A stretch of DNA of 59,117 nt, filler included, from Catajapyx aquilonaris (taxonomy: Eukaryota): assembly GCA_000934665.2 (NCBI GenBank). It is 3 parts of 3 records of this genome, joined end to end, with 100 filler letters (N's around TTAATTAATTAA, not from the genome) between each part and the next. Parts side by side here need not be neighbours in the genome. Positions count along the whole stretch, not along the records: positions 19,725 to 39,373 come from JYFJ02006413.1; 2 more parts are not named here. The stretch is one strand, 5' to 3'. Positions 10,054 through 39,373 of this stretch are shown one piece after another (the first letter of the stretch is position 1; every line of letters begins with the position of its first letter). The notes beneath the pieces were generated by a model. That model worked only from the letters and a program-made list of their open reading frames with translations, was not told where the DNA came from and searched no databases. Made by a program: the position numbers and the translations under genes.

Positions 10054-10103
<50 letters not shown>

Positions 10104-15020: not shown

Positions 15021-15095
15021 AGGGAGGTGTGTGACCCGCACTTTTTCCCATTGTATACCGTACCCACAGGGCATTCTTTTTTGCTCCTATCTGTA
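15021..15095 (+). mobile_element. Putative polypurine tract and start of the Gypsy 3' LTR
   Basis: AGGGAGG followed by TGTGTGAC about 240 bp after the pol stop; no matching 5' LTR seen in the window. Confidence 0.35.
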
Positions 15096-16169: not shown

Positions 16170-16523
16170 CCCGTGCGAAGAACGGGTACCCCTGGCACAC
16201 TGATGGTTTACGTGCCGCTGATTCTGGGAATAGTGGGAAAAGTCCGAAAACGGCACTTTCTTGAGTCTATATGACTGAAATTTAAGATTTTTCTGGACTG
16301 CGGATATTCTAGCTTACTTTGCCATGTAAATAGGCCGTGCGAAGAACGGGCTCCGCTGCTAGTCTACTTATAAAATGATCGCCTAGATCCCTAGTGCTAG
16401 AACCTCTCTACAATTTCCCATGAAGCGACACAATTTCTTCACCCTGTATTCCAGTACAGTACAGGTTTTACAAATTCCTTTCACTTATCAATTCCCATGC
16501 GAAGAACTGGTACCCTGCTAAGT
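16170..16523 (+). mobile_element. Cluster of three Helitron-like 3' termini
   Basis: CC(G/A)TGCGAAGAAC(G/T)GG hairpin at 16171, 16335 and 16495; the second is followed by ...GCTGCTAG|T, the CTRR-T Helitron end. Confidence 0.6.
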
Positions 16524-18671
16524 AGTAGTTCATATAATCTGGGGGTGTAGTGTAGGGCGTTGATGCAGTGGCAGAATTGGCAACATGCAGTTCCTCCCAA
16601 AACCAAAAGTGAGGAGGAGAGGCGATTTTGGGGAAGAGAATTTTCCACCTTGGTTGGTGGGAGGGTGGGGGTGGTTGGGTTGGGGCGCCTCGATGCGTCC
16701 ATGTGCGTAACTACGCGGAGGAGGGAAGAGGTGCGTAGGGGGTTTGTGGCAAGCTGCTGGGCTGGGGTAGTGTGCTGGGGGCAGGCAGGCTGGACCGAAG
16801 CTCTGGCTGGCTGGAGAGGCAGGGCCGAAGGGGGCCCGAGGGGTCGCTCGGGAGGAAGGAAGGAAGGAAGGAAGGCTGCTGTAACTTATAAGTGAAGAAG
16901 AAGAAGGCTCATTTTTAAGAGAGGCGGGGGTGTGACCGGTACTGGGTTACGCACATGCCGTGCGTGAATGGTGCAGTTGTCACTGCCTGGTTCATACCAC
17001 CCACCCTCACCAGGGAGCTCAGGTGAGCACATCAATATTGATAGCCTTGGTGATGGTTAGTCGCCAATTTGTCAATGGGAACTCCCTCATGGTATTCGAC
17101 CGTAATAGACCTTGCACGTGACACAGTACTGGTAGGCTCTAAGATGATGCCTTCCTGCCTGCCTGTCTCCTGACCAAGTTCGTGTGCCGGGTCTTATATT
17201 CGGATGCAATACCGTAACCCTAACCAAAGCGAATACCAATTGTCATATTCAGGTGGTGTTGGTTAACTAAGTGAAGAAAGCTTCCATTATTGAATAATCG
17301 AGTGTACCACAGGAGATAGTACCGAGACGTGTCAGCACATGACTGATGGGACACTAAAAATACTGGCCGAGTGTGTGATAACTGCAATATATTTTGGTTG
17401 AACCATTCAAGCACATGGCATTGGTTCCGGTTAGAGGTGATGCGGCGTAACTCACTTATTATTGATTCAACCAAAGAATAGTAGCGACGTCACAATGGAC
17501 AACAACGATCGTCAACACGGGAAGTAACAATTGAATGGCTGTGGCCTGACGTCACTGGCTAGTTGCATCAATAATATTGGTACTCATCTGGGTCAACGCC
17601 CGTGTGTTAGGAGTAGACTAATAGGGGTAGTGTGGGATAGTGCTCTTGTGCGAACTAGTATGATTGAGAAGTGGAAGAGTGAATCCAAGGTCTGAGACGC
17701 CATTTTCCTTTCTTTTTTTCCTCCCCCGTCCTCCATCCTCTACTGCCCCCTCCCCAGTCTGCCTGCCATGCCTCAACCTCCCCCTTCCCCTCCCCTACCC
17801 GGCAGCCCCACTCCCACTCTCCTCCCCTGCTTACCTCCCCCCTCCCCTTTTCATCTAAACCCCACCCAGAGCCAGAAATCGCACGCACTTTTCTCCCCCC
17901 TAAATTAACACACACACGCACAGTGACGTGTCACGTAGCGGCAGAAGCCCGGAGACAACAGGCCTGCTCTATGCAAGCTGCTATGTCGCATGTCAGTATT
18001 GTTGAGCCTGTCTCACTTGGCACATGCTGCATAGTGTGGCACATAGTGTGAGCAGTATACATGGGCTAGTGTGCATAGTTGAAGTAGGATGATCACATTG
18101 ATGGCCAGGAGGGGTGTGAAAGTCAAACAAGATAGTGTTGAGCTAGAAGGTGGAAATGTCAAGCAGCCACACACATTATCATTGGGGAATTGTGCATGTG
18201 TGCCCCCAGCAGCCAAGGTCAGACTGGCCATGTGCATGATACTTGCCGGAGTTTGTAGTGGTAAATGAGATGTGTTGATTGCCTATCAAGTGTGATGGTG
18301 CTCAGCTTGACTGCATTGTGCTATGTTCCTCAGTTTGGAAGTATAAACGTGAGTCCGGCCAGGACTGCTGTAACAGTCTGTTGATTATATGATATATATG
18401 GCATCCTAAAAATGTCAGTTTGTGCACCTTTGCATTCAGCAGAGAAAACTTATTTTCCCAGCTGTAAATCGACTTGTTTTTGAATTGCAGTGCTAATCAC
18501 CAAAATTTTTCCCTTCTCTGCATTTTTGTGTTACACACATGGTAGTTATGTGCAAGTCATAAATTCCATAACGCCTGCATATTTGACTAAGAGGAAAACT
18601 ACTTGGAGGCCTAGCGCAGAATTTGAGGAGCTTGGCAAATAAAATTTTTGGACAAAAGTAGTGTGGCAGTG

Positions 18672-19624: not shown

Positions 19625-19724
19625 NNNNNNNNNNNNNNNNNNNNNNNNNNNNNNNNNNNNNNNNNNNNTTAATTAATTAANNNNNNNNNNNNNNNNNNNN
19701 NNNNNNNNNNNNNNNNNNNNNNNN
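19625..19724. other. Assembly gap spacer
   Basis: 44 N + TTAATTAATTAA (stops in all six frames) + 44 N. Confidence 0.97.
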
Positions 19725-20186
19725 TCTATACTTCCAAGCTGGTGCAAGAGTGATTATCTCAATTCTTTAAAGTAGAAACCCCGAATAGTTCTTAGTAGTA
19801 ACTGACACCACATGAGTAGGACAAGTTCTCTTTTTTTTTTGGGGGGGGGGTGCTCTAATGACATGAAATCCTGTGAGCTGAATGTGTTTAGAAGTAATGC
19901 TGTAACTGATATGCAATGTACTCCTCAAGAGCAATTTTGTGATTGCCTTGGATCACACCTGTTCATGTTCATATTTTCAGGACGCAACAAACCTTGCGAA
20001 GTTGCGTTAGTTACGACTATCGTATTTCTCAAATATTTCATGGCTCTGCTGCTATCTGGCTTATTGTAACTTATAAGGCCTGTCTTAAGGCATATTGAGT
20101 TTCAAGTGTATGGAACGCAAAGTTTACAAACAAACGTCCTAAAATATACCGTATGTACCCGTAGCTTTACCAGCACCCCCAACATA

Positions 20187-20213
20187 CCCGGGCAATGCCG
20201 GGTAACCTGCTGG
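20187..20213 (+). mobile_element. Helitron 3'-end remnant in F-box copy 1 intron 1 (second copy at 27749-27775)
   Basis: CCCGGGCAATGCCGGG hairpin followed by TAACCTGCT(G/A)G; the copy-2 version ends in CTAG. Confidence 0.55.
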
Positions 20214-20325
20214 AATGTCTACTATTATCAGCCAATCTTTTTCCCTCGATCTACCGTGTTAACATTTACATGACTACATGATCATGTGTGCTTCTTACAG
20301 TTGTGATCCTCTGATTTTCTTTCAG

Positions 20326-21765
20326 ATTGCTGGTGGGTTGGGTGTCTCAGAGGTGCAGGGGAAGGCACAGGGAAAGTCAGTGGCTGAGGCCAAGATTCGT
20401 GACAAAAAGAAGTCTCGCTTGACGAAGGGAGGCAGCAACCAGGAACATTGCCAAGGAGAAGCAACGGTGAGTGGGGAGGCTAATTACCTTGGTAACTGGG
20501 AGGCTCGCAAATGCTTGTACTTGACATGATATTTGTTTATATATAAGGTACTTGTTTGCAGAGTTAACCAATTTCTTTGCAATTTCAGACCAGCATCAAG
20601 ACCTTTGCCAACCTGACTGATGAGATAAAGGCTAAGGTGTTCTCATACCTGGATGTGAAATTCCTCTACAGGAGCACCCTGGTGTGCAAGGATTGGTTCA
20701 AGGTGGCCAAGGAGTGGCTGGGTCTTAGGAAGAAAGTAATTTTGAGTAGTTTGCAATTGACGCTGGAGGAATCTGTGCAGGTGATCATAAACTACAGGAC
20801 ACATCTGACGTCGGTTACTCTGATGCACTGGAATTTAGAGGATGGTGATTCGCTGTTGGAAGTAGTAGCCCAGAGCCTTCCTCGTCTGAAGCGTCTCAGC
20901 GTTTATCTTATGTTTGTGTCACAGAAGACGCTGGAACTGATTGCACGAGAGTCAGTAAAGGAGGGTCATTATGGTGTGTTAAGTGTCATTCAGCTTATTA
21001 CTTTTATTTTTACGACACAGGTGCAGCGAACTACGGGAAATCTACATAAGGAAGTTCCCCGGGAATGAGGATAACTGCAGGCATCTCCTGGACATTTTTA
21101 CTTCCTGCCGAGAGCTAGAAAAGATAACCATAAATGATGGATGTTTCCCTCCGCCATCAATCCAGGCCACCGGGCGAGACTGGCCGAAACTCACCGATGT
21201 GTCCCTTTACATGGACAATGCTGACAGGGAAGTGGAAGTGCTCAGCTGTACTCTGGGGGCCCAGCTGAGGAAACTCACAGTCCGTAACTTCAAGAATCAG
21301 AAGTCCTTCCTTCTCCTGGCACACTTCCCTCAGCTGGAAGAGCTGGAAATCCATTCCTGCGAGAACTTAACTGATGCTGCCCTGCATGACGGGATTGGGA
21401 GACTGCACAACCTCCGTAGGTTGGACCTGTCAGACTTCCGCTTCTGCACTGCACAGGCTTTATTACAAAGGTTTTTCTCCAAGCCAAACGTTGTGGGTAG
21501 CCTGGAGAAGATCAGCATTTCTGATTGCCCAAAGCTGAACAACAGTTGCATATCAGCCATTGCCGTGAACTGCCCTCTCCTGACTCATTTCCACTTAGTG
21601 AGAAACAACCAGGTCACCAACGACCCTCTCCTTGACCTGGTGATGAGGTGCCGCAATCTCCGGAACCTCCAACTCAAATGGTGCCAGAAGCTGGACCTGA
21701 GCGCGGAGGTCCGGGATGAGCTCCAGGCAGTGAGCAGCAAGCTTCAAATTTATGTATATCCCTGA
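20326..21765 (+). CDS. F-box/LRR-repeat protein (FBXL-like), copy 1; exon 1 lies in the gap
   Basis: Exons 20326-20466, 20589-20950, 21021-21765 with GT-AG sites, in frame (phases 0, 2). F-box LTDEIKAKVFSYLD..STLVCKDW; cysteine-containing LRRs (QLEELEIHSCENLTD, NCPLLTHF, CRNLRNLQLKWCQKL). Confidence 0.88.
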
Positions 21766-22359
21766 TTCCACCTGATTGACGCATCACTCACAGTTGCAAC
21801 GTCACATCCTAAGAGTTTCATGTTGAATTAAATAAGTCCAGCCCTTATGGTGGATGTAATGAGTTTGAAGTGAAACTCATTACCTGTAGGAATTTGAAAT
21901 GTGTAAGAATGGTTCAGTTGTTACAAGATAATCTTAAGGTTAAAAGTAGTCACTAATCTACTTTTTGAAACAGTCAGTTTTCATGGCCAGTATTAATTTC
22001 TTATGCTGTACTTTCCCAACATACTGTTTGTCACTTTTGTTCAACTTGTGCGGGATTGCAGTGCCTTATCCAATTAACTGCCATTTACCGGTGTGGTATC
22101 TGAATCCACATGTTGAATGACCGGCAATAGTTTGTACAACAAATACCCATTTGGCTGTATTGAAAATGCATGCCTGGAATTGTAATTAAAGCAATGTGCG
22201 GTAAGGATTGAAAATGATTAATATGCGGCCAGTTCCCATTCATATATGTATTTATTCATTCATTTATTTCACAGCCCCTTGCTAGGGCAGGGCCCTTTTC
22301 GGGGGGAACAAGACTCCAGTTTGGACGTGAATAAATACACTAGCATGACCAGGGCTAAT

Positions 22360-22760
22360 TCGTGCGACACCGGTTCCCTTCATGTGAGTTTGTACACAGA
22401 CATGCCTCTGCCATTTGGAATTACAGGTTCGCAGGGAAGGCATAGGTCCTACACGGAATCGTAATCCTCGCTTCGAGGAGCGAGTACTGCGGATGTTCCA
22501 GCAGAACCCTTCCACCAGCAGCGTATCGCGTAGTGGGTGCCGACCACGTGACGGTTTGGCGTGTGGTACACAATGACGGCCAATGTCCCTACTGCAGGCA
22601 GAAGGTGCAGCATCTCGTCCAGGCGGACTATCCAGCCAGAGTTGCCTCCTACCAGTGGTTCCTGCAGCAGATAATGGATGCCCCAGGTTTCCCAACCACC
22701 GTCATGTTCAGGCAGATGAGGCATGTTTGACAACATATCCTGAGTACCCCCGGGGTGTTC
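22360..22760 (+). pseudogene. Tc1/mariner-like (DUF4817/Tc3-type) transposase remnant
   Basis: Frameshifted EERVLRMFQQNPSTS, HVTVWRVVH, QKVQHL, QWFLQQ, TTVMF..DEACL; paralogous to 30017-30395. Confidence 0.75.
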
Positions 22761-24879
22761 CAATCTATTCGGGAATCTCTTGTGCAGCATCTCTTGTAAT
22801 GAGTATGTATGATAAATGGGTACATGTGCTTCGTGTTGTGCCTCCCTAATAATACTGAGAATGCAACTCCTATGATGCTTGCCTTATATTAACCTATGTA
22901 ACTAGTGTCACGACTGTCAGACGCCCTGGAGGAGCTCTAATTAGGGCAAGAAAGTAATTATCGCATACAATTTCACGGTTAACTCGAGGGTCAGGGAAAG
23001 GACCCAACCATTTCCCCCCCACCCCGCAGGGGGTTCCCCAAATTGCCCAAATAGGCTCTTTCGCCTCAGCAGGGGGCACATAAACCAGACAAGTAAGCCA
23101 ACAGGGCAATTTAATATTTCTTCCCCTTTTTCTACATGGGACGACTAGCTGTCAATCATTTCTATTTCTACAGACGTTTTAAAAAAAACCAACTCGCTCA
23201 AGCCGGCATGTCTATAGTATATATATTCATTTAGCCATGCCACCGCTTTCCCAACAATATGTGTGTAACAACCGATATAAGTGGACGTAAATTTACCCCC
23301 AGGTGGTGCTTATCGTGACGAAACGGGCACAATTATCTGGCAATTTGTGTCAGAAGATTTTTAAAAGGCAGAATAAAATTCATGACACGAAATGTGAAAT
23401 AAAAGTAGGAAGGAAGAGGAGGCTCCCCTAGAACAATAAATTACTGTGGCAAAACCGATTGATCGTTGTTTGATAAAAGCTATATTCCCTTCTCCAAAAA
23501 CCGCCTAACTGCACGTACGCGCACACACACACACACACACACACAAAAATCCCTTTTCAAACACCGGGCCTGTCCAAATCTGACATGCACTTATTATTCG
23601 GACCCACCGGGAATAACGGTCTGTATATAATTTTAAGTGTAAATCCCCTGCTCTCATAAATATAACCTATATAACGAGCCAAACAGTTACAAATGCTGGT
23701 CACGAAACGCACTGGAAAAGTTTGGGCGCAAAAATTCCTCTGAAACATCCTTCGCCCAGCCAGGGATCAAGTGCAGGTGCGTGAACCCCTCGTCCTGAGG
23801 CCCTCTGAAGTAGACATGCCTCTATTGGAGGGGCAACCTTCCCTTCAACTGGACATATTAGTTCCGTCTTGGTTCACCCAGTCGGAGCTGGTTTTACTCG
23901 AATGTAGGTTCAGTCACGGCAAAGGACTTGCTCTCATCAGTTATTAGCTCTTGGTAATATAGTAGTACAAGAGGATAATTGACGAGGGTCCTAAGAGAAG
24001 CGTAAGTATGAGCGGCTGTGTCCATTTGTCACTAATCACAATTTATTATTCGGAAAAGCGCGCCGCAGGCGAAATTTTTGGGGGGGTTCAAGGTCACACG
24101 AGCTTAGGTGAGATGTGGGAGATTTGAATAGGTGTATATTTGATGAAATTGGTAGCACTTTTTCCAAAAAAATATCATGAATTAGTAATTTATCATGCTA
24201 TTTCAAACTGTCCTGTATATTGTCGCGGTCCGGACAAAATTGCGTCGCGGTCCGGATCCGGACCGCGCGTATATGCATTTAAGTTGCAACTACCTGGCAA
24301 TTTTGGCCCCTCCCATTTTCACCCAACTTTAACTCTTCTTTCGCAGATGGATCGAAGAATTTTGCGTCTAGTTCACGGGCGTATGCCAATAAAAAAGACC
24401 GCCCCGAAGACTTATTCGGTTCACCCAACAATTATTGCGCGCAGCTCGATGGCGCCGAGATTGTGTGATGGCCTCCAGAGCACCTTTTCGGCAAGAAATA
24501 AGGCTCGTCGTGAGGACGGGCATAAGGGGGGCAGGAAGGGGGCAGGTTCAGATACGTCTTAGGTGCCGTCTGAGGAGAGAGATGCCCTTGTCGGAGAGGC
24601 CCCAGTGGGGGGAGAGGGTGATAATGCTGGGGACTACACGAATCACCCGCCATTAACCCCAGGTGCCAGTGTTATCACCTTACAGGTGCTGATGGCGAAC
24701 GAGGCAGTGGATCAGTTTATGCGTAAGTAATCCTCATTGTCACAACGTATAAATTACAATCATTATTCTGACTAATCGTTTTCTCGTCCCCAGTTCTTCC
24801 GCAATAGATGACCGTGCAGCGCTATCCCGTGTTCATCTTCGTGTGTCGGGTGGGTGTGTGTGAGGGTGTGCCTGATCAG

Positions 24880-25226
24880 GTCTTGACTAAGGTCTGGGGA
24901 CGGAAGTCTGTGGTTTTACTGTAGCTGTGGGGACCAGTTCCAATTGTGGGGACATTTGTCGGTCCCCACAGTCTCACACACGCGAAGTGTACCATTACAG
25001 TGGGGACATGTGTAAATTAGTGGGGACATGTCCCCACTATTTTCATTTGTAGGGTTTCACAAAAGTCCATTTTTCTCAGCCTAGGTTACTTAGGGTAGGG
25101 TAGGTTAGGTAGGTTAGGTTAGGTTAGGTTAGGTTAGGTTAGGTTAGATCAGTTTAGATCAGTATAGATCAGTTTACACTCGCAGTGAAAAGTGATCAAT
25201 GTCCGTCCCCACGCCTTAGTCAAGAC
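24880..25226. mobile_element. TIR MITE (MuDR-like) carrying internal (TTAGG)n
   Basis: GTCTTGACTAAGG..GGGGACGGA / TCCGTCCCCACGCCTTAGTCAAGAC termini; TTAGG tract at about 25081-25147; GTGGGGAC repeats. Confidence 0.7.
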
Positions 25227-26081
25227 AAGAGAAAATGTGTTTGCATGTGTTTGTACTTATACTATTTGTCTGGTTTGGAATTCAAATGTTCAATAAATGT
25301 TTTGTAATATCAGTAATAAAACATACAACATTTTGACCTAGCTCGTTTCCCATATCATTTTTCAGTGGCCAAAGGTAAGCATTCTTGCGCCATTCATTTG
25401 AGTCTTGAACTAAGTAGATTCGGTCGTGAATTTCCAGCACTCCTTCCACCAGCAGCAGCGCTCCTTCCACCAGCCTCTAGAAATTCAGTAGTGTTGTTTG
25501 CAGTCGTGCAGATACCTGAACTCGATTTTGCCATTGCATTGCGAAGATTTCTGCGACAACACAAAGGTGGACGTCTGCTGCCTTCGTGAATGAAATTTAA
25601 TACAGTTAGTTCCTTAATATTTAATGCAGTTAGTTCCTTAATATGATTCCTAATGCCAGCAGGTTGGAGCATTCCGAGTTTCGCTCAAAACGCCGGGTTC
25701 CTACTGTTATTAATAATTATCGTTTCCGAGTAGTACATGGTATTTCAAGCGAAGCAAAGTCAATTCCATGAGAAATGGGCCAGGGTGGTTGCTCGACCAT
25801 CTAGTTATTTTTTTAAAAAAAACAAAAAATCACCATATAGGTAGTCTTGATATTGACTAGGTCAAAATTATTTTTGTACATTTTTTATCTGCCACCATGT
25901 TGGAATTATACTCATTTTTCTTCACCGCGGCGAGCAAAAACGACAAACGAGCTTTTGCAATGCATGGTTCTGGGGGGNGGGGGCGGAAAGGCTACTGTTT
26001 GGTGTCTATTCAAGATATAGAAATTTCTGACTTTCACCTCCTAAAGGTAGAGAGATCTTTCAGAATAATGCCTGTAATTCT

Positions 26082-26139
26082 TCATTACTTTCATTTTTTT
26101 ACGACACAGGTGCAGCGAACTACAGGAAATCTACCTAAG
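26082..26139 (+). pseudogene. Orphan intron-3/exon-4 junction fragment of a deleted F-box/LRR copy
   Basis: TCATTACTTTCATTTTTTTACGACACAG|GTGCAGCGAACTACAGGAAATCTACCTAAG matches the exon-4 acceptor region of the four copies. Confidence 0.8.
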
Positions 26140-26319
26140 CAACTTCATGTCGTCTTCCCGCGTCTTCCCTAATTATACTGGGACTCCCCTCTTTCTAGCC
26201 CACACTATGCGTACAAATCTCACCGTCGTTTCCAGCCTGTCTGACACCCTGCTGAAGCTCTAATTCGGGCCACAAATTATTAATTATCGCATTTTAATTT
26301 CCTGGATCGACCAAGGTCA

Positions 26320-26331
26320 GCCGCCATCTTG
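26320..26331. promoter_or_regulatory. YY1/Pho-type promoter motif upstream of F-box copy 2 (also 30611-30622 and 33945-33956)
   Basis: GCCGCCATCTTG (CAAGATGGCGGC on the minus strand) lies in the conserved block preceding exon 1 of copies 2, 3 and 4. Confidence 0.5.
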
Positions 26332-26773
26332 GGTGCGTTCCCACCGTCGCTTTATGTCTGTTCGTATTCGGACACAACCGCGATGACATCACTCTAAATC
26401 CGGATGCAGCCGATAATAAATCATTATATTATTGCTAATGAAGTTAATGAACACTTAATTTTATACAATGTACCAAAAATGCAGATTGCACTATTTATCT
26501 GGTTTAATTATCGGTTCGAATGGTCGTGGGAATAATTTGGCACACCATTTGGCAACACGCGAATCCAAAGATGACCGCCGACAATGGAAAGCTTCGAATA
26601 TTGTTTCCCTTTATTTGTTGAGCTTCGGGTTGATTGTTGCGACGGGTTAGACGCCTTCCGATTGTTGGAGGGGGTTCCCGCAGGATTGGAGAGGGTCCGG
26701 AGCAGGATTGGGGAAGGGACGGAGGAAGGAAGGAAGGAAGGAAGGAAGGACGCTGGGGAAGCAGAGGGTGGTG

Positions 26774-29322
26774 ATGGAGACCATGGGGGAGGCTGAGGAG
26801 GACACCGTGGATGAGACGAGGGCCACGAAGAGGAAGAGGGTGGACACGGGCAGGGGGATGGACGAAGAAGAGGAGAAGCCAGGGAGGAAGGTGAAAAATA
26901 AAGTGTTGGTGCAATCTGTATGGCTTCGGAGTGACCGCACCAGTGCTGCTCAACTTCTGGCCATGCCAGGCACGGTACATCGCATTGCGTGAGGATTTTA
27001 ATTAGTCGGAAGCGTACTGTGCCTACGGTAGTTACACTCAACTGGGCAATTACAGTAGTTACCGTGGCATATCCAGGAAATTTAAAAAGAAACCTGTAAT
27101 TTTTGTGTGGGACTAAACAGCACCTGTATCGTAGTGCAGATGCAGTTATGAGAATATCATTGCATTTTTTGCACTAAGCTGCCATTTTTTGCACGGTTCA
27201 TGTGAAGATCTCAGCTCACCAAAAACACACTTTTAAAAAACGGGCCAAGTGTGTATATTCCTCTGGCGAAAAAAGGTGTGAGATCAGGGGAGGACGCCAA
27301 GGCTTTCTTCGGCACTTAAGAGACTGGTTTGGTTACTTTGCCTGGCCTTCAACGTTGTCTGATCAGGCATGGATGGAAAAGCTTTCTTCTAGAACCGTAC
27401 ACTAAATTAAGTGACTTGGCCATGGGGCACGAAGAACGAGAGGCGGTTTGAAGGTAGCCTTTTTCTATTCGTCACTTATGGTGGCGATCTCCAATCCTCG
27501 TCATGATAAGTTTACATTCGATTTGCAGGTGTAATGGTAGGTTACACTGGCTGAGGGGAAGTTATTACTGGCCGGTAAGTTGTTGAAAATAGGGAAAGCG
27601 TTGTTTGAAAACAGTGGTTTCTGTGGTTTTGAAGGACTTAACCGGCCAGGGAAAACCACGACCTTTGGAGAGAGCAAGCAGTCGTTTCCTGGCTCTCTCG
27701 AAAGGCTGTGGGGACAACTTCTTACAAGCTGATGCAAGAGTAAACATACCTGGGCAACGCCGGGTAACCTGCTAGCATGTCTAATATTATCAGCCAATCT
27801 TTTTTCCTCGATCTACCTTGTTAACTTTAACATGACTATATGATTATGTGTGCTTCTTACAGTTGCGATCTTCGGATTTCGTTTCAGATTGCTGGTGGGT
27901 TGGGTGTCTCGGAGGTGCAGGGGAAGACACTGGGAAAATCAGCAGCTGAGGCCAAGATTCGTGACAAGAAGGAATCTCGCATGACAAATGGAGGCAGCAA
28001 CCAGCAACATTGCCAAGGAGAAGCAACGGTGAGTGGGGAGGCTAATTACCTTGGTAACTGGGAGGCTCGCAAATGCTTGCACTTGACATGATATTTGTTT
28101 ACATATACAGTACTTGTTTGTACACTTAACCAATTTCTGCAATTGTAGGCCAGCGCCAAGACCTTTTCCAGCCTGCCTGACGAGATAAAGGCAAAGGTGT
28201 TCTCGTACCTGGACTGGAAATCCCTCCGCATGAGGACCTTGGTGTGCAAGGATTGGTTGAGGGTGGCCAAGGAGTGGATGGGTCTTGGGAAGAAAGTAAT
28301 TTTGAACCGAAAGCTATTGACTCTGGAGGAATCGGTGGGTGTGATCATGAACAACAAGACACATCTGACGTCGGTTACTCTGATGCACTGGAATGGAGAG
28401 AGGCATGATTCGTTGTTGAAAGTAGTAGCCCAGAGTCTTCCTCACCTGAAGCGTCTCAGTGTTTCTAATATGTTGGTGCCACAGAATATGCTGGAACTGA
28501 TTGCACGAGAGTAAGTAAAGGAGGATCAATATGGTGCGTTAGGTGTCATTCAGCTCATTACTTTCATTTTTACTACACAGGTGCAGCGAACTACAGGACG
28601 TATCCCTAAGGAGTTTCAGCTGGAATGGGGATTACTGCAGGCATCCCCTGGACATTTTGAGTTCCTGCCGAGAGCTAGAAAAGATAACCATAGGGGGTCG
28701 ACGTTTCCCTCCGCCTTCAAACAAGCCCACCGGGCGAGACTGGCCGAAACTCACCGACGTGTCGCTTCTCATGGACTACGCTGGCTGGGAAGTGGAAGTG
28801 CTCAGCTGTACTCTGGGGGGCCAGCTGAGGAAACTGACAGTTGTATCCTTCCATAATTCCCAGTCTTACCTTCTCCTCTCACACTTCCCTCAGCTGGAGG
28901 ACCTGGAGATCCGATCCTGCGAGAACCTAACTGATGCTGGCCTGGAGGACGGGATTGGGAAACTGCACAACCTCCGTAGCTTGACCCTGGTAGAGCTCGA
29001 CTCCTGCACTGCACAAGGGTTACAAAGGTTTTTCTCCAAGCCCAACGTTGTGGATAGCCTGGAGAAACTCAGCCTTTCTTATTGCTCAACTCTTGACGAC
29101 AGTTGCATATCAGCCATTGCCATGAACTGTCCGCTCCTGACTCATTTCTGCCTGTCTCATAACGACAAGGTCACCAACGCCTCGCTCCTTGACCTGGTGA
29201 GGAGGTGCCGCAATCTCCAGCACCTCCATTTCTACAGGTGCAGGAAGCTGGACCGGAGCCCAGAGGTCCGGGATGAGATCCAGGCGACGAACAGCAAGCT
29301 TCAAGATTATGTACTTTTTTGA
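26774..29322 (+). CDS. F-box/LRR-repeat protein (FBXL-like), copy 2, about 453 aa
   Basis: Exons 26774-26890 (METMGEAEED..TKRKRVD..PGRK; weak GTGAAA donor, alternative donor near 26974), 27888-28028, 28149-28510, 28581-29322, all in frame. F-box SLPDEIKAKVFSYLD; LRRs. Confidence 0.88.
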
Positions 29323-30016
29323 TTCAACCTCATTGATGCTTCACTCACAGTTACAACGTCACATCCTAAGAGTTTCATGTTGAAAGAAAAAAGTACAACC
29401 ATTATGATGGATGTAATGAGTTTGCTCTTGAAGTGAAACTCATTATCTGTATGAAATGTAAGAGTGGTTGAGTTTTTATAAGATAATCTTAAGGTTAACA
29501 GTTGTCGCTAATCTACTTTTTGAAACAATCAGTTTTCATGGCCAGTATTAATTTATTTTATTGTACTTTTTCAACATAGTGTTTATCACTTTCGTTCAAC
29601 TTATGCCGGATTGCAGTGCCTTATTCAATTGACAATCACTGCCATACTACGTGGTGTCTGAATCCACATGTTGAATGACCACCGATAGTTTGTCACAAAT
29701 GCGCATTTGGCTGTTTTGAAAATGTACGCCTGGAATTGAAATTAAAGTCAATGAGCGATAAGGATTAAAAATGATTAATATGCAGCCAGTTCCCATTCGT
29801 ATATGTAGATAGATTCTTTATTTCTATCGTACAGAGTACATAGAAAGACACCACCCTCCTCTACCATTACCATTTTTACACACTACAATACAATGTTACA
29901 CAACTGCAGCTTTTGAACTGCCATAAAAAAAACTTGTATAAAGAAAACATCATTTGTGGGGGGATATCCAAATACAACAAGTGGATTTTGTCGATCGGTA
30001 CTCTCCTAAACTCTCG

Positions 30017-30395
30017 TATGGTACGCAATGACGGCCAATGTCCCTACCACAGTCAGGAGGTGCAGCATCTCCTCCCGGAGGACTATCCAGCGAGAGTTGC
30101 CTCCGCCCAGTGGTTCCTGCGGCAGACGATGGCTGCCCCAGGTTTCCCAACCACCGTCATGTTCAGCGACGAGGCATGTCTGACTCAAGATGGCCCTTCC
30201 CAGGCAGGTGGATAGGCCATGGGGGGGGCCAGTGGCCTGGCCTGCGAGATCCCCTGATCTCACTCCCCTGGACTTCTGCTTTTGGGGATGGTTCGAGGAC
30301 CTCGTGTGTGCCATACCAGTGGAATCGGAGACGGAGTTGGCAGCCCGAATCCATGGCGCCGCGCAACATATCCGGAGTACCCCCGGGGTGTTCCC
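30017..30395 (+). pseudogene. Tc1/mariner-like transposase remnant
   Basis: VMFSDEACLT, RWIG, GPVAWPARSPDLTPLDFCFWGW, PVESETELAARI; internally deleted and frameshifted. Confidence 0.85.
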
Positions 30396-30706
30396 GGGAA
30401 TCTCTTGTGCAGCATCTCTTGTAATGAGTATGTATGATAAATGGGTACATATGTGATTAATGTTGTGCTTCCCTAACTACTGAGAATGTAACTCCTATGA
30501 TGCTTCCCGTATATTAACCCAGTGTCCCGACCGTCAAACGCCCTGGAGGAGCTCTAATTAGTGCAAGAAATTAATTATCGCATGTAATTTCACGGTTAAC
30601 TAGAGGGTCAGCCGCCATCTTGGGCGCGTTCCGACTGGCTTGATTGTTGGAGGCCTCCGGGTCCAGGGGTATAGGGATTGGGAGACTGGAAGGAAGAAGA
30701 GGGACG

Positions 30707-32257
30707 ATGGAGACTGGAAGGACGAAGAGACTGAACATGCGGAGGGAGGCAGAGGAGAAGGGTTGGGGCACTGAGGAGACAATGGCCATGAAGAGGAAGA
30801 TGGTGGACATGGGCAGGGGGGTGGAGGAAGAAGAGGAGCCACGGGGGAAGGTGAAAAATAAAATAGAATAAAAATGCTGGTGTCATCTGTATGGCTTTTG
30901 GGGTGACCGCACCAGTCATGACCATCAGTCAACATATTGCATGGAACTATTGCACTGATTTTTTCCTGTGCGATACGTGCTTATTCTTGTGGTTGCAACC
31001 CTATATTATTACACTGCCTTCGCTTCAGATTGCTGGTGGGTTGGGTGTCTCGGAGGTGCAGGGGAAGACAGCGGGAGAAGCTGCGGCCGAGTCCAAGTTG
31101 CCTGACAAGTTGCCAGCCTGCCTGATGAGATGAAGGCAAAGGTGTTCTCGTACCTGGACTGGGGATCCCTCTACAGGAGCACCCTGGTGAGCAAGGATTG
31201 GTGCAGGGTGGCCAGGGAGTGGATGGGTGTTAGAAGGAATATGACTTTGGACGGCAAGCACTTCACTCTGGAGGAATCTGTGGTTACGATCGCTAGCAAC
31301 AAGACCCATCTGAAGTCTATTAACTTGTGGCATTGGGATGGGGAGGAGGCTAATTCACTGCTGCAAGTAGTAGGCGAGAGTCTTCCTCACCTGAAACATT
31401 TCGGTGTTTTAAGGATGTTTGTGTCACAGAATATGCTGGAACTGATTGCACGAGAGTAAGTAAAGGATATGGTGCGTCAAGTGTCATTCGTCAGTTCATT
31501 ACTTTTATTTTTATGACACAGGTGCAGCGAACTACAGGACATATCCCTAAGGATGTTCAGCTGGAACGGGGATTACTGGAGGCATCCCCTGGACATTTTG
31601 AGTTCCTGCCGAGAGCTAGAAAAGATAACCATAGGTGATCTATGTTTCCCTCTGCCATCGAACAAGGTCACCGGGCGAGACTGCCCGAAACTCACCGAAG
31701 TGTCCCTTCTCATGGACAATGCTGACAGGGACGTGGAAGTGCTCAGCTGTACTCTGGGGGGCCAGCTGAGGAAACTGACTATTGGATTCTTCCATTCTCC
31801 GGAGTCCTACCTCCTCCTCGCACACTTCCCTCAGCTGGAGGAGCTGGATTTGCAATACTGCCACAACTTAACTGATGCTGGCCTGGAAGACGGGATTGGG
31901 AAACTGCACAACCTTCGTAGCTTGACCCTGGCAACCTTCCTCTCCTGCACTGTACAAGGTTTGCGGAGGTTTTTCTCCAACCCGAACATTATGTGTAGCC
32001 TGGAGAAGCTCACCCTTTGTGATTCCTCAACTCTTGACGACAGTTGCATATCAGCCATTGCCGTGAACTGTCCGCTCCTTACTCATTTCCACTTGGTGAG
32101 AAACAACCAGGTCACCAATGCCCCGCTCCTTGACCTGGTGAGGAGGTGCCGCCATCTCCAGCGCCTCAACTCGTGCAGGAAGCTGGACCTGAGCGCAGAG
32201 GCCCTGGGTCAGTTCCGAGCAGCCAGCACCAACCTCCAAATTTCTGCATATCCCTGA
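30707..32257 (+). pseudogene. F-box/LRR copy 3; frameshifted at a fused exon 2/3 junction, downstream ORF intact
   Basis: Exon 1 30707-30850; exon 2 from 31029 is fused to exon 3 by deletion of intron 2, giving a stop at 31131-33. Open frame from ATG 31130 through 31455, then exon 4 31522-32257. Confidence 0.75.
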
Positions 32258-34380
32258 TTCCACCTGACTGGCGCATCACTCACAGTTACAAGGTCACATC
32301 CTAAGAGTTTCATGGTGGATGTAATGAGTTTGCTCTTGAAGTGAAACTCATTATCTGTAGAAATTTGAAATGTGTAAGGATGGTTGAGTTTTTACGAGAT
32401 AATCTTAAGGTTAAGAGTTGCAATGCATTTAGTGGGACTTCTGTGCCTTACTTAATGACAATCATTGCAATAACTATCTGAATACACATGTTAAAGGACC
32501 TGCACTCCCGAATGTCCAGTACTATCGTCTGTATTTTATACCGACTTTTTAATACCATATGTATTGAATTGAAATTAAACTTGACTCGACAGTAACCGAG
32601 TTTTTACATCATGTAATGAGCATGTCCAGCACGAATCGGATTCAAATGTAAATCTCTTTATTGAACGATCTAGCCAGAACAAATTTACATAGCCCTTCAA
32701 ATGCTGACAGGATTTTCTCTGTTATTTTTAAATTTTTTTTGTCATTTACATCAAATTTTATGAAAGAATCTCTACGGAAATTTTGATCTGAAAAGATGAG
32801 CAACTTGGTTGTAGGCAGTGTCATTGTTCTGGAAGGTGTTTGCGAGATTGATGAAACTTGAAGCATTTTTTCCAAAGATGTGTAATGTGGACGTACAGAG
32901 AAGTGGTCCAGCACATGCAGTCGTAATAATAATACATGAATTTTTCCTCCTTGGGTCATGTTAAGACGTTAAGTCACTAATGATATGAACAGAAAAATCA
33001 TGAAATATACATTTTAACCTAATGAAATTTTTGACATTACTCTGTTTAGGTCATGGCGCATGTTAGAGGTGACAAAATGAAGGCCATTCAAATTTCCCTT
33101 TTGGAATGGTATGTGCAGACGTGCCTGGGTGATTGGAAGAGTAAGATTGGGTAAGGACTGTGAATTGTTGATGTGTGATGCTGTAACTTCTGCGTTTGTC
33201 TCGGTCTGGTGTGTGACAGATGGTCGATATTATTAGCCTGTAACTCATAGGAGCACTTCATGGTCTGTGATGCATCACCATTCAGCAGTTATATTACCGG
33301 CGTTGTTATGTGTAGACGACTTGCAAACTGATGATAAAAATTATAATCATGACTTGTTTATTGTACCTTTATTTCTCATGCCTTTTTGTGCCGTACCGTG
33401 CTGTACATGCTTCTGGGTGTTAAATGGGAATGTAAGATATGACTGGATTGAATTAATTTGCTAATTATGAGACCCACGTAACAAGGTGATGTACAAAAAA
33501 ATTCCCATGACAATCACTGCGATAAGGCATGGTATGTATCTGAATCCACTGATACGCTGAATGTATAGTACATCATCATCACCATCATCACGACATTTCC
33601 CTATGAGGGGTCAGCGATGAAGGGAGACTGTATTGATACCATGTGCTCCACTATGCTCAACTGATATTAAACTGACGCACACACGTAACAGTGTTTTTTT
33701 CTTCATCATGTAATGACTAAAGTAGTAAAGAGCATACGTACAGTACAGCACAGTAATTGGCTGGTAAGTGAATAGTCATGCGCCTCCCTAATACGACTGA
33801 GACTGCTCCTTTGCAACTCCTATTATCCTTACCAAATATTTAACTGAGTGTCCCGACCGTCAGACGCCCTGGAGGGAGCTCTAATTAGGGCCAGACAATT
33901 ATTAAATTATCGCAAATAATTTCCCGGATAATACCACAAGCTTAGCCGCCATCTTGGGTGCGTTCCGACCGTCGCTTCCGGTCCTCATATTCAGACGCAA
34001 CCCCTGGGCGCGTCACGCCAAATCCGGACTCAACCCACATTTCTGTCTATTGCACTAATAAACAAGTGTTAATTTATATAATATGCCACATGCAATTAGT
34101 ATTATGCATCGTGTGCGATTGCATTGTTTGTCAGGTTTAACTGGCTCCTTTGGTTCGAATCGGGGGGAAATCTGGCAACAGGTGGTTGATCAAATCCAAG
34201 ATGGCCGCCGACAATGGAACGCTTCGAATATTGTTTCCCTTTTTTCGTTGAGCTTCGGGTTGATTGTTGCGACGCGTTAGACGCCTTCCGATTGTTGGAG
34301 AGGGTCCCGCAGGATTGGAGAGGGTCCGGAGCAGGATTGGGGAAGGAAGGAAGGAAGGACACTGGGGAAGCAGGGTGGTG

Positions 34381-37186
34381 ATGGAGACCAGGAGGATTAG
34401 GAGGCTGAGGATGGCGAGGGAAACTGAAGAGAATGGTTGGAACACGGTGGAGACGAGGGCCATGAAGAGGAAGAGGGTGGACATGGGCAGGGGGATGGAG
34501 GAGAAGCCCCAGAGAAAGGTGGAAAATAAAGTGTCAGTGCAATCTGTATGGGTTTGGAGTGACCGCACCAGTGCTGCTCAACTTCTGGCCCTTCCAGGCA
34601 CGGTACATCGCATTGCGTGATGATTTCAATTACTCGTGAGCGTAATGTGCTTATGGTCGTTACACTCAACTCAGCAATTGCAGTATTTACCTTGGTGTGT
34701 TTCCAGGAAATTTAAAGAAACCTGTAATTTTTGTGCGGGACTAAAGTGCACCTGCACCTGTAGTGCAGATGCTGTTATGAGAATACTGTTGCATTTTTTG
34801 CACTAAGCTGCCTATTTTTGCATGGTTCGTGTGAAGATCTCATCTCACCAAAAATGCACTCGTAAAAAACGCGCCAAGTCCTCTGGCGAAAAAAGGTGTG
34901 AGATCATGGGAGGACGCCAAGGCTTTGGTTACTTTGCTTACTTTGTCTGGCCTTGAAAGTTGTCTGATGAGGCATGGATGGAAAGGCTTTCTTCTAGAAC
35001 CTTACACTAAATTAAGTGACTTGGCCACGGGGCACGAAGAACAAGAGGTGGTTTGAAGGTAGCCTTTTTCTATGACTCACTTATGGTGGTGATGTCCAAT
35101 ATTCTTGTAATGATCAGTTTACCTTCGATTTGCAGGTGTAAGGGTAGGTTACACTGGCTCAGGGGACGTTATCTCTGACCGGTAAGTTGTTGAAAATAGG
35201 GAAATAGGGAACTGTTTGTTTGTTTCTGTGGTTTTGAAGGACTTAACCGGCCAGGAAAAACTTTTGAGAGAGCAAGAAGTCTTATGCTTGCTCTCTCGAA
35301 AGGCTGTGGGGAAAACTTCTTCCAAGCTGGTGCAGGAGTGAGTATAGTGGCCAAGTTACTTAATTTACTGTATGGTCTAGATACTCAAGAGTCTAGAAGA
35401 AAGCCTTTCCGTCCATGCCTGATCCAACAACTTTTAAGGCCAGACAAAGTAAGCAAAGTGACCAAACCAGTCCCTTAAGTGCTGAAGAAAGCCTTGGCAT
35501 CCTCCCCTGATCTCACACCATTTTTCGCCAGAGGAATATACAGACTTGGCTCGTTTTTGGTGAGATCTCAACACTTTTTGTGCAGCTGAAATGATTCACA
35601 TGAAGAAACCTCACAATTCCATTCCACTCGCATCCCACGTAATATAATTGACCTGTGGCTATTTTCCCTCGATCTACCGTGTTAACTTTTACATGACTAC
35701 ATGATTATATTATGTGCTTCTTACAGTTGCGATCCTCTGATTTTGTTTCAGATTGCTGGTGGGTTGGGTGTCTCGGAGGGACAGGGGAAGACACAGGGAA
35801 AGTCAGTGACTGAGGCCAAGATTCGTGGCAAGAAGGAGACTCGTGTGGCGAAGGGAGGCAGCAGCCAGCAACATTGTCAAGTAGAAGCAGCGGTGAGTGG
35901 CAAGGCTAATTACCTTGGTAACTGGGAGGCTTGCAAATGCTAGTACTTGACATGATATTTGTTTACATATCCGGTACTTGTTTACATATCTAACCAATTT
36001 CCGCAATTGTAGGCCAGCGCCAAGACCTTTTCCAGCCTGCCTGATGAGATGAAGGCAAAGGTGTTCTTGTACCTGGATATGACATCCCTCCTTACAGTTG
36101 CACTGGTGTGCAAGGATTGGTTCAATGTGGCCAAGGATTGGCTGGGTCTAAGGAAGGGAATAGTTTTGAGCCAGCGGCGATGGACTCTGGAGGACTCGGT
36201 GCGTGTGATCATGAACTATAGGGCCCATCTGACATCAGTAACTCTTCTGAACTGGAATAGAGTGAATGATGATTGTCTACTGCAAGTAGTAGCCGAGAGA
36301 CTTCCTCACCTGAAGCATCTCAGTGTTTTTAATACGTCAGTGCCACAGAATATGTTGGAACTGATTGCACAAAAGTGAGTAATGTAGGGTCGATATGGTG
36401 CATTAATTGTCATTCTGTTCATTACTTTCATTTTTACAACACAGGTGCAGTGAACTACAGGAAGTCAACCTAAGAAAGTTCAACAGGTATGTGTATTACT
36501 GGAGGCATCCCCTGGACATTTTGAGTTCCTGCCAAGAGCTAGAAAAGATAACCATAGGTGGTCGATGTTTCCCTCCGCCATCAAACAAGGCCACCAGGCA
36601 AGACTGGCCGAAACTCACCGACGTGTCGCTTCTCATGGACATTGCTGACTGGGAAGTGGAAGTGTTTGCCCATTCTCTGGGGGCCCAGCTGAGGAAACTG
36701 ACGGTTGAATTCTTCAGTAATCCGGAGTCCTTCCTTCTCCTCGCACACTTCCCTCAGCTGGAGGAGCTGGACATCCAATCCTGTGACAACTTAACTGATG
36801 CTGGCCTGGAAGACGGGATTGGGAAACTGCACAACCTGCGTAGCTTGACCTTGGCAAATGCCCCCTCCTGCACTGCACAGGCTTTCCAAAGGTTTTTCTC
36901 CAACCTGAACATTGTGGGTAGCCTGGAGAAGCTCAGCCTTTGTCGTTGCTCAAAGCTGAACAAGCGTTGCATATCAGCCATTGCCGTGAACTGCCCTCTC
37001 CTGACCGATTTCTGCTTGGTGAGAGCTAACGAGGTCACCAATGCCCCTCTCCTTGACCTGGTGAGGAGGTGCTGCAATCTCCAGTACCTCCGACTCAGCT
37101 GTTGCAGCAAGCTGGGCCTGAGCGTAGTGGCCCTGGATGAGTTCCAGGCAGCGAGCAGCAAGCTTGAAATTTATGCATCTCCCTGA
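34381..37186 (+). CDS. F-box/LRR-repeat protein (FBXL-like), copy 4, about 460 aa
   Basis: Exons 34381-34518 (MKRKR motif; weak donor), 35752-35892, 36013-36374, 36445-37186, all in frame. F-box SLPDEMKAKVFLYLD..VALVCKDW; LRRs. Confidence 0.88.
34844..35564. mobile_element. Long-TIR non-autonomous element in intron 1 of copy 4 (left part also in copy 2 at about 27214-27740)
   Basis: CTCACCAAAAA...TTTTTGGTGAG termini; inverted arms such as CCTCTGGCGAAAAA(A)GGTGTGAGATCA / TGATCTCACACCATTTTTCGCCAGAGG. Confidence 0.7.
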
Positions 37187-37314
37187 TCTCCACCTGATTG
37201 ACGGATCACTCACAGTTACAACGTCTCATCCTAAGAGTTTCATGTTGAAAGAAAAAAGTACAGCCCTTATGGTGGATGTAATGAGTTTGAAGTGAAACTC
37301 ATTATCTGTATTAA

Positions 37315-38158
37315 GGGGAATTCTTACCCATTTGCTGCGCTGCGTCTTGGCCTAGAGATGGCGTTACTGCTTGCATTACTTTATATGGACAGCTGATTTT
37401 CATATTTTCGTCTTTGCAAATTCACCAAAAATAACGCAAATTATGCCATTAGATGGCCGGGAACAAGGACTCAATGGGAATATCTCATGAGCGACCTAAA
37501 GGACATGGAAGTAGCAATAAAATTCCATTGACAAAATCGTGTTGCGTGGTGTAATTACAGTACAAGTGGTGATCAATCTCCATATTCTGCATTAGGTTAC
37601 ATTACATAGTAAAAGTGATTGGTCGTGATCAGAAGTCACTTTAAATTAATTTTAAAAACCTGCAGCACTTCTACAACTGTGACTCCAGGGAAAAGATGGG
37701 GATGCAAGGAATATTGTAATGACAGTGACATCCAGAATTGACGAGTAGTTTTCCCATTTTTGCACATGCTATTATTAGAGCGTAGCAGAAAATATATGTT
37801 ATGCGATAACATTCATCAGGACTGACTTGTGAGGAGAGGAAGAGGGGAAGGATGGCTCCCAGATGTATGGGACCCCAGTGAGGAGGGTTGGGATGGGGTC
37901 TGACCTCCCTCTGAGCGTTCGGTTTATCTCATTCCCACTCCACTTGGGACGTGTGTAACGCGAATAATTTCCTCCAATTAATTGCACACATATACTAAAG
38001 CATATGGCCAAAAAAGACGATGGTTGTCCCCATTGAGTCCTTGTTCCCGGCTATCTAACGGCATAATTTCTGTTATTTTTGGTGCCTTTGCAACGGACAA
38101 AACATGAAAATCTGCTGTACATATAAAGGGATGCAAGCAGTAGCTGTAAGAATTCTCG
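37315..38158. mobile_element. TTAA-specific long-TIR element (Kolobok-like) downstream of copy 4
   Basis: TTAA|GGGGAATTCTTAC ... GTAAGAATTCTCG|TTAA with extended inverted arms; the site is empty in copies 1-3. Confidence 0.78.
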
Positions 38159-39373
38159 TTAATTTGAAATGTAAGGATGGTTGAGTTTTTACGAGATAAT
38201 CTTCAGGTTAAAAGTCGTCACTAATCCACTTTTTGAAACAATCAGTATTCATGGCCAGTATTAATTTCTCATGTTGTACTTTCCCAACCTACTGTTTGTC
38301 ACATTGTTCAACTTGTGATTGCAATACTTTGCAGGATTGCAGTGCCTTATTTAATTGACAGTCACTGCCATACTGCGTGGTGTCTGAATCCACATGCTGA
38401 ATGACCAGCGATAGTTTGTACACGGAATGCGCATTTGGCTGTATTGAAAATGTACGCCTGGGATTGTAATTAAAGCAATGTGCGGTAAGGATTGAAAATG
38501 ATTAATATGCGGCCAGTTCCCTTTCATATATGTATTATTTAATTTATTTATTTCACAGCCTCTTGCTAGGACAGGGTCCTTTTAGGGGGGTACAAGACTC
38601 CAGTTTGTACATGAATAAATACACTAGCATGACCAGCGCTAACGTGATCAAGATTGCCAATAATAATAATAATAATAAGGAATCCTCGGCAATCATTATA
38701 AAGACAAAAGAAACCTAGATAAATACAAAGGGATTTACATGGGAGGAGAGAGGGATAGTTCCCCCCCCCCCCCCTCCCTTATNCCTCCCTTATTTATTTA
38801 AGTCATTTTGGGAACTGTCGCAAAAAAAATTACAAAGTAAAAAAGCTTCTTCAGATGGTAACTAATAAATTGAACAGACGTTGAATTCGATCCGGATTAG
38901 GCCTATTGAATAAAAAGGGTTTTCGAGGTGTCACTCGGAGTTGCCAGGTCATATCCTAGAAATTCCCTGCTATGCACATGAACAATCAAATGCGAGCTTA
39001 ATCAGGGCAAATGATCGTGGTGCAGATCAAAATGGATCGTGACATGCTTATGGCGTGAAAAGGAATTTTAATTAAACTGATGGCCGATGTACCTAGTTTG
39101 TTGTTACGCAAAGCTCATTGCCTTTTACGGACTGGGAATGTATAAGAACGGTCGAGTTGTTACGAGCCAAAGAACGTTAGGGTCAAAAGTTCACTAATCT
39201 CAATTTTGGAACGAATCACTTTTAATCGCCAGTATTAATATTTCATATGTTGTGGTTGCGCAGTACGCTGAGTGGAATTGTTGTGCTTTACCGATTGCCA
39301 AATGTTGCAATAAGTATCTGAATCCACATGTTGAAGTACCAGCGAGGGTTTTTTTTATGCCGAATGTACTGTA

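Follow-up and report, generated by a model that had tools for sequence, protein, structure and literature searches.

A tandem array of F-box/leucine-rich repeat genes in Catajapyx aquilonaris with a candidate diversifying specificity ridge

Layout of the array and gene models

The subject of this analysis is a 59,117-nucleotide stretch of the genome of the arthropod Catajapyx aquilonaris (GenBank assembly GCA_000934665.2; hereafter the window), composed of three parts joined end to end, of which positions 19,725 to 39,373 derive from the record JYFJ02006413.1. Within this part, four paralogous copies of a gene coding for an F-box and 12 leucine-rich repeats (LRRs) lie head to tail on the plus strand at 20326-37186, an interval that a first-pass annotation of the window had delimited and that spans exactly exon A of the first copy through the stop codon of the fourth. 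The copies, here named c1 to c4, occupy 20326-21765, 27888-29322, 31029-32257 and 35752-37186, respectively, and share pairwise identities of 80-84% in DNA and 52-70% in protein. Gene models derived from a four-way DNA alignment and in-frame translation comprise three exons with AG/GT borders: exon A, of 141 nt, encodes a basic low-complexity stretch; exon B, of 362 nt, encodes the F-box, a linker, and two LRRs; and exon C, of 736-745 nt, encodes the remaining ten LRRs and ends in the stop codon. Spliced in this form, c1, c2, and c4 give 415, 414, and 414 codons, respectively, with GT-AG introns and zero internal stops. The exon structure that had been ascribed to all four paralogs is thus borne out for these three copies but breaks down in c3, where a deletion has run exons A and B together.

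Exon A of c1 (20326..20466), which provides 47 codons of basic low-complexity N-terminal extension, is in phase 0 and is bordered by an AG acceptor and a GTGAGT donor. It is followed by exon B (20589..20950), with the F-box, linker, and LRRs 1-2, and by exon C (21021..21765), with LRRs 3-12 and the stop codon; the latter has 247 open codons and is 67% identical to its counterpart in c4. The equivalent exons lie at 27888..28028, 28149..28510, and 28581..29322 in c2 and at 35752..35892, 36013..36374, and 36445..37186 in c4. In c3, the alignment reveals a remnant of exon A (31029..31109) joined out of frame to exon B (31112..31455) by a deletion that took away intron 1 along with the adjoining 3' part of exon A and, at the start of exon B, 16 aligned bases. 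The F-box frame of c3 is open within an open reading frame (ORF) at 31106-31459, with a stop codon immediately 5' of it and without an in-frame upstream start; its exon C (31522..32257) is likewise open, with a 6-bp in-frame deletion in LRR 11. Because the exon A remnant is joined out of frame, reading from upstream terminates at codon 83, and c3 is probably a recently disabled member of the family. A 75-bp remnant of a fifth copy, made up of the end of intron 2 and the first codons of exon C, is found on the same strand at 26073..26147; it is 85.7% identical to c4, and its ORF departs from the family after CSELQEIYL.

Approximately 0.2-1.2 kb 5' of c2, c3, and c4 lies a stretch of the form ATG...AAG/GT that is conserved, open, and phase-compatible with the exon A acceptor in all three instances and that, judged from its sequence, may be the first exon. 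The putative first exon of c2 is at 26774..26890 (ATG to AAG/GT, 39 open codons with a KRKR motif, phase 0), and those of c3 and c4 are at 30707..30850 and 34381..34518, respectively; the equivalent region 5' of c1 runs into the run of Ns at 19625-19724. The flanks of these stretches are as conserved as the stretches themselves, and their conservation is therefore no mark of coding. An in-frame ATG just 5' of exon A (MIMCAS..PLIFFQ) was considered as the start of a signal peptide and rejected, because what follows it is the translation of a canonical acceptor (polypyrimidine tract plus AG) and because the ATG is missing from c3. DNA contigs of the runs X1-X3, which come from one sample, match the assembly across 36038-36524 in c4 with 0 differences. 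No joint skipping an intron was seen among 15 of the 33 joints in contigs of X1, X2, X3, and X5, these contigs being short and fragmentary. Those of X5, a run of unspecified type, show depth in 24 of 30 bins; the six uncovered bins are all intergenic, to which no weight is attached.

The first-pass annotation had described a tandem family of genes, and the state of the reading frames agrees with this. Apart from the 5' deletion of c3, the coding indels measure only 3 and 6 bp, and 440 aligned noncoding bases of flanks and introns carry indel runs of 1, 2, 4, 7, and 11 bp. In neutral simulations with 0.08 substitutions per site per lineage, the probability of staying stop-free is 0.06 for one lineage and 1.3e-5 for all four; over the range of 0.05-0.10 substitutions per site per lineage, the probability for four lineages runs from 8e-4 to 8e-7. 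Of the 368 amino acid columns, 170 are invariant, and the site model M1a places 24% of the sites at a ratio of nonsynonymous to synonymous divergence (dN/dS, or omega) near 0. The synonymous divergence in the invariant columns is 0.19-0.25, which equals the overall value. This normal silent divergence indicates that the scaffold has been kept by selection at the protein level rather than by recent gene conversion, which was accordingly rejected as the source of the invariant columns. Taken together, the open frames, the invariant columns, and the sizes of the indels show c1, c2, and c4 behaving as maintained genes.

Domain architecture of the encoded proteins

The Pfam model F-box-like (PF12937; cut-off, 24.3 bits) is detected in all four exon B translations, with 27.1 bits in c1 (E = 3.5e-6), 31.9 in c2 (E = 1.1e-7), 32.4 in c3 (E = 7.8e-8), and 39.7 in c4 (E = 4.1e-10), and the last of these is also recognized by the Pfam model F-box (E = 7.3e-8). 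The conserved pattern LP.E...K.F.YLD....L....LVCKDW extends across the copies, with LVSKDW in c3. For the C-terminal part, exon C of c4 was folded with AlphaFold2, using the four copies as the alignment. The resulting model is a solenoid of ten strand-helix units, with a mean per-residue confidence (pLDDT) of 88.5 and a predicted global fold score (pTM) of 0.88. Its best Foldseek matches are FBXL2 (E = 7e-9), TIR1, Dia2, FBXL17, and Skp2, with E values from 7e-9 to 1e-5, TM-scores of at most 0.69 when normalised to the query, and 14-20% identity. HMMER searches against the PDB likewise recover FBXL17 (E = 3.5e-7), FBXL2, and Rad7 as the nearest solved chains. The Pfam F-box together with these LRR fold matches points to the architecture of an FBXL-type substrate receptor of the Skp1-Cul1-F-box (SCF) ubiquitin ligases, and the earlier identification of the copies as F-box/LRR genes is upheld.

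All 12 repeats, of 23-30 residues each, could be brought into a common LRR register. Repeats of the cysteine-containing (CC) type follow the consensus LxxLxLxxC...C. In the array, a cysteine is present at position 9 in repeats 7, 9, and 11 only, and a second cysteine ahead of the next repeat is seen in repeats 2, 3, 9, and 10 (NCPL, RCRN, SCRE, and RECSE).

Conserved scaffold and variable ridge

The first-pass annotation had drawn attention to nearly invariant scaffold segments interspersed with variable residue pairs, and every segment and dipeptide that it quoted was recovered in the in-frame alignment. The segments DWPKLTDVSL, AHFPQLEEL, NLTDAGLEDGIGKLHNL, CISAIAVNCPLL, and LLDLVRRC are each identical in three of the four copies; the deviating copy carries two residue changes in DWPKLTDVSL, AHFPQLEEL, and NLTDAGLEDGIGKLHNL and one in CISAIAVNCPLL and LLDLVRRC. 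When the repeats are registered on the conserved L1 of LxxLxL, a DSSP assignment on the model places positions 3-7 in the strand, 8-13 in the ascending loop, and approximately 14-23 in the helix. Variation is distributed very unevenly over this register. Position 1 is variable in none of 12 columns, position 2 in 4/12, position 3 in 8/12, and position 5 in 9/12; the count reaches 11/12 at position 7, 10/11 at position 8, and 11/11 at position 10, and it is down to 2/11 at position 17 and 3/11 at position 20. Positions 7, 8, and 10 combined are variable in 32 of 34 columns versus 121 of the 262 remaining LRR columns (Fisher p = 2e-8). Within the strand, the outward-facing positions 3, 5, and 7 are variable in 28 of 36 columns versus 11 of 36 for the inward-facing positions 1, 4, and 6 (p = 1e-4).

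In an LRR solenoid, equal register positions of successive repeats stack on one another. The hot positions therefore line up as a single ridge on the edge of the concave face, beside the ascending loops. This refines the initial description, which is correct in essence and under which the residues in and just after the strand differ in almost every repeat: the description is apt for the last strand residue and the loop that follows it (positions 7-10) but not for the x residues in the middle of the strand, as positions 2 and 3 show.

Codon-model tests of selection

By Nei-Gojobori counting, pairwise dN/dS is 0.94-1.44 in exon C, 0.68-0.92 in exon B, and 0.32-1.03 in exon A, the range for exon A among c1, c2, and c4 being 0.32-0.71. 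Broken down by repeat position, counting gives an omega of 0.40 at positions 2+3, 0.69 at position 5, and 0.79 from position 14 onward, with 1.66 at positions 7-13 and 1.82 at positions 7+8. The mean pairwise dN in this stripe is 0.36 (positions 7-13) and 0.64 (positions 7+8) versus a dS of 0.21, and the divergence K pooled over noncoding sequence (introns, flank, and 3' untranslated region [UTR] of c1, c2, and c4) is 0.12-0.17, below the dN of the stripe.

Likelihood models with F3x4 codon frequencies were fitted to the four taxa. The single-ratio model M0 gives an omega of 1.07-1.11 and favors the tree ((c1,c4),(c2,c3)). On this tree, M2a, which allows a class of sites above 1, improves on M1a with a likelihood ratio test (LRT) statistic of 25.45 (p = 3e-6) and assigns 37% of the sites to an omega of 2.8. 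The result is seen in exon C (12.4) and exon B (16.7) separately, under the other two topologies (26.87 and 25.13), and with c3 masked (31.7); the comparisons of M8 with M7 and with M8a yield 25.5 and 25.45, respectively. Simulation of 40 data sets under the fitted M1a gave no statistic above 5.55. Sites with a posterior above 0.9 number 40, with 29 in the LRRs and 11 in the F-box and linker; of the 29, 18 fall at position 7, 8, or 10, and positions 15-30 contribute none. The variable sites had been expected to avoid the convex face, and indeed no site on the helix or convex side reaches this posterior.

Fixed partitions with shared branch lengths return an omega of 4.0 for positions 7+8 and of 2.0 for the exposed residues of the strand motif (xxLxLxx). 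Under a stricter model, in which the partition has its own rate, omega is 2.26 for positions 7-13 (p = 0.003), 3.1 for positions 7+8 (p = 0.014), and 3.7 for positions 7, 8, and 10 (p = 0.001), the last set having been chosen post hoc. The prediction that dN/dS would exceed 1 on the binding face is accordingly supported, in these likelihood fits, for positions 7-13, which lie beside the concave face; it does not extend to the xxLxLxx residues under this stricter model, or to positions 2, 3, and 5, which are below 1 by counting.

Relatives and comparison with other F-box families

A word-indexed search of 5.8 billion proteins with the LRR exon returned 732 candidates, none of them at E <= 1e-3. 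Of the 7004 proteins that a full HMMER profile search retrieved at E <= 1e-3, nearly all owe their match to generic similarity between repeats. Two of the proteins found by the profile match the array copies in size and layout, namely, P0010 (386 aa) and P0027 (397 aa), each of which forms a cluster of one member and derives from short contigs assembled from public runs. Both are collinear with the copies over the F-box and LRRs at 28-32% identity, with an equal repeat count (BLASTP E = 2e-25 for P0010), and share with them the motifs GGQLRKL and C..AIA.NC..LT; both begin with polar residues right before the F-box. When the two were included in the profile, 29 matches at E <= 1e-8 were obtained, all of them generic F-box/LRR proteins except P0027, and no closer named protein emerged, the named FBXL proteins attaining E values of only 1e-10 to 1e-13. 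In a protein atlas, the copies matched generic F-box/LRR clusters only, with a score of 0.94 and 132-165 shared features versus the 170 typical of the same family. With the closest relatives at 28-32% identity and no closer named protein in either the word or the profile searches, the copies are not 1:1 orthologs of a conserved FBXL gene, in keeping with the lineage-specific character that had been proposed for them. The NPRL3 gene of the window, with a best database identity of 59%, points to an arthropod that has no near relative among the sequenced species.

In animals, the canonical FBXL genes are known as conserved genes present in one copy each. The array resembles the solved FBXL-type receptors (FBXL2, FBXL17, Skp2, TIR1, COI1, D3/MAX2, and Dia2) in having an N-terminal F-box followed by a solenoid of approximately 26-residue LRRs, several of which may be of the Cys-containing type, but differs from the named FBXLs in being tandemly duplicated, fast-evolving, and not orthologous to them. 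Nematode families mostly pair the F-box with FTH or FBA2 domains rather than with LRRs, and a study by Thomas in Genome Research in 2006 reportedly described an F-box expansion with selection on the substrate-binding domain. In both Caenorhabditis elegans (PMC8120010) and the plant FBX superfamily (PMC3030570), F-box families have expanded and vary mainly in the domain that recognizes the substrate. Like the array, these expansions form lineage-specific clusters with many pseudogenes, in which the F-box is conserved and the recognition part is variable; the array differs in its arthropod host and in that its variable sites map to one stripe of the LRR register. Among arthropods, the SSGP-71 family of the Hessian fly is described as a very large family with an N-terminal F-box and approximately 13 LRRs that interacts with host Skp (PMC4617103), and 232 F-box/LRR genes are counted in Aphidius ervi (PMC7257214). 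Compared by description, both share with the array an arthropod host and a lineage-specific character, and they are large sets of F-box and LRR proteins for which arms races have been proposed. However, SSGP-71 proteins bear signal peptides and are injected effectors, whereas no signal peptide is evident in the candidate N termini of the array. The array thereby adds one lineage to a known pattern, already seen in worms, plants, and some insects; the addition is clearly documented and unsurprising.

Evolutionary interpretation

The most probable interpretation, to which we assign a probability of roughly 0.6, is that the array encodes SCF adaptors in which, once the gene had been duplicated in tandem, selection drove the diversification of the ridge that determines specificity. 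It would represent a young family of FBXL-type F-box proteins, arranged in tandem and specific to one arthropod lineage. By analogy with the better-known members of the superfamily, the N-terminal F-box of the intact copies c1, c2, and c4 would most likely dock onto Skp1-Cul1, and the 12-repeat solenoid would bind a target that is then ubiquitinated. After duplication, the hydrophobic core, the helices, and the F-box scaffold would have remained under purifying selection, with the strand-end and loop residues (positions 7-13, chiefly 7, 8, and 10) apparently being replaced faster than silent sites. Such a striped pattern may be read as the mark of selection toward new or changing binding specificities. 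If the stripe at positions 7-13 indeed sets specificity, the paralogs would constitute a natural collection of FBXL receptors distinguished almost exclusively by one ridge, with which one could study how F-box proteins of the LRR type recognize their targets.

Several observations weigh against this interpretation. At the level of the gene models, the 5' ends rest on inferred first exons, the F-box of c1 begins with LT where the other copies have LP, and c3 is broken in the frame from its putative first exon, even if its 359-codon exon B-C part is still open. All the selection tests draw on only four sequences, and the likelihoods were computed with our own Goldman-Yang-type code and not with PAML or HyPhy. 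Counting tests based on local synonymous sites place no partition significantly above 1 (p = 0.13-0.4; by Fisher's test, 0.13 for positions 7-13 and 0.24 for positions 7+8). The a priori solvent-exposed set xxLxLxx, given its own rate, has an omega of 1.07 (p = 0.8). Omega outside the stripe is still 0.87-1.0, with 0.71-0.79 in the helix part, so that constraint looks generally weak, as in drifting F-box subfamilies. Finally, the parsimony-informative sites are split over all three topologies (29, 23, and 18), and a run of seven consecutive sites that group c1 with c4 and c2 with c3 (14|23) occupies alignment columns 1451-1494. Informative sites for every tree imply recombination or gene conversion between the copies, which can inflate site-model tests. 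The run of seven corresponds to approximately 21530-21575 of c1, in LRR 9, where c1 and c4 have KLNN/KLNK versus TLDD in c2 and c3; from its sequence, it looks like a short tract of gene conversion or shared ancestry.

These observations feed most directly into the alternative that the array is a product of birth-and-death genomic drift, in which recent duplicates are under relaxed constraint, the loops are structurally free to vary, and an omega above 1 is an artifact of four recombining sequences, multinucleotide changes, and few synonymous sites. We regard this as a genuine though lesser possibility. It would account for a gene-wide omega near 1, with values of 0.7-1.0 even outside the stripe, for the nonsignificant counting tests and the unelevated xxLxLxx set, and for the discordant topological signal. 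The damage to one copy in four and the 75-bp remnant of a fifth would also be expected of it, and plant lineage-specific F-box subfamilies that are little expressed and under relaxed selection have been described as possible products of genomic drift (PMC3030570). Drift is nonetheless hard to reconcile with the rejection of all models restricted to omega <= 1, with LRT statistics of 25-32 under all three topologies and without c3, to which none of the 40 null simulations came close. Nor does it readily explain a stripe omega of 2.3-3.7 even when the stripe is given its own rate, a stripe dN in excess of the divergence of introns, flank, and UTR, and frames that are still open where neutrality would allow this with a probability of 1e-5 at most.

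The immune or anti-parasite role suggested at the outset, with viral, endosymbiont, or transposon proteins as targets, is speculation. In a wider form of this idea, which we judge unlikely, the array would be a single unit in an intracellular repertoire of arthropod adaptors, in which many F-box/LRR arrays diversify one binding ridge against fast-changing foreign or selfish proteins and consign them to the proteasome. Equally doubtful at present, such a repertoire would be the arthropod counterpart of the proposal made for nematodes and plants, its specificity stripe being defined in structural terms and the foreign or selfish proteins being those of viruses, symbionts, transposons, and drive elements. 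In any event, the array lets one ask whether arthropods, like nematodes and plants, aim expanded sets of ubiquitin ligase adaptors at fast-evolving targets.

The kinship in architecture with SSGP-71, which combines an N-terminal F-box with approximately 13 LRRs as compared to 12 here, raises the further alternative that the copies are secreted effectors of the Hessian fly type, exported into a host or prey to hijack Skp1 in the course of an arms race. The candidate N termini speak against export: neither exon A nor the putative first exon has a hydrophobic core of the signal type, both being charged and basic, with the KRKR motif; the sole hydrophobic in-frame stretch 5' of exon A (..PLIFFQ) results from translating the polypyrimidine tract of the canonical AG acceptor; and the collinear relatives P0010 and P0027 have a polar start just before the F-box. 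In the absence of a signal-like candidate N terminus, we consider secretion very unlikely. It is just as improbable that the whole array is nonfunctional and consists of dead copies that merely look intact, as an omega near 1, the broken 5' end of c3, and the transposon remains between the copies might suggest, because three copies splice into 414-415 stop-free codons with indels in multiples of three, 24% of the sites are at an omega near 0 under M1a, 170 of 368 columns are invariant despite normal silent divergence, and four stop-free lineages have a neutral probability of only 8e-4 to 8e-7.

Genomic surroundings of the array

Several repetitive components lie in and around the array. Two intercopy pieces, at 22560-22994 and 30015-30611, are 86-88% alike and have transposase-like ORFs, which we take to resemble the C-terminal part of Tc1/mariner transposases; a Pfam search of these ORFs gave nothing at E <= 0.01. 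The summed depth of the DNA-run contigs reaches approximately 2000-17000 at 24067-25228, 20000-20580, and 27553-28133 versus 7-160 in neighboring bins, which marks these segments as high-copy repeats; over the exons, the summed depth is not readable as a copy number.

Homology between the copies extends well beyond their coding regions. A 3' flank common to c1 (21891-22358) and c2 (29452-29807) reappears at 38161-38642 (and at 39111-39253), approximately 850 bp downstream of the end of homology in c4. From this displacement, the flank of c4 seems to have been split by an insertion, and the duplication unit would extend at least 470 bp past the stop codon. On the 5' side, c2 and c4 are homologous over 1.5 kb (26228-27741 versus 33848-35339; 79% identity), including purine-rich, (AAGG)n-like low-complexity sequence. 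Just before its exon A, c4 further has an extra piece of approximately 320 bp with inverted-repeat arms (34879-35028 versus 35347-35535), which is possibly a small transposon.

Farther upstream in the window, the remains of a Ty3/gypsy-like retroelement lie on the plus strand at 9348-13755, with a match to RT_RNaseH_2 (E = 3.8e-19) and one to the integrase core that is below the Pfam cut-off (E = 4.5e-5); an 820-bp stretch at 10392-11211 is its own reverse complement at 89% identity. On the other side of the array, also on the plus strand, is a gene for NPRL3, a GATOR1 subunit, at 41929-43137 and 43572-44240, with at most 59% identity to the proteins of termites, cockroaches, and grasshoppers.

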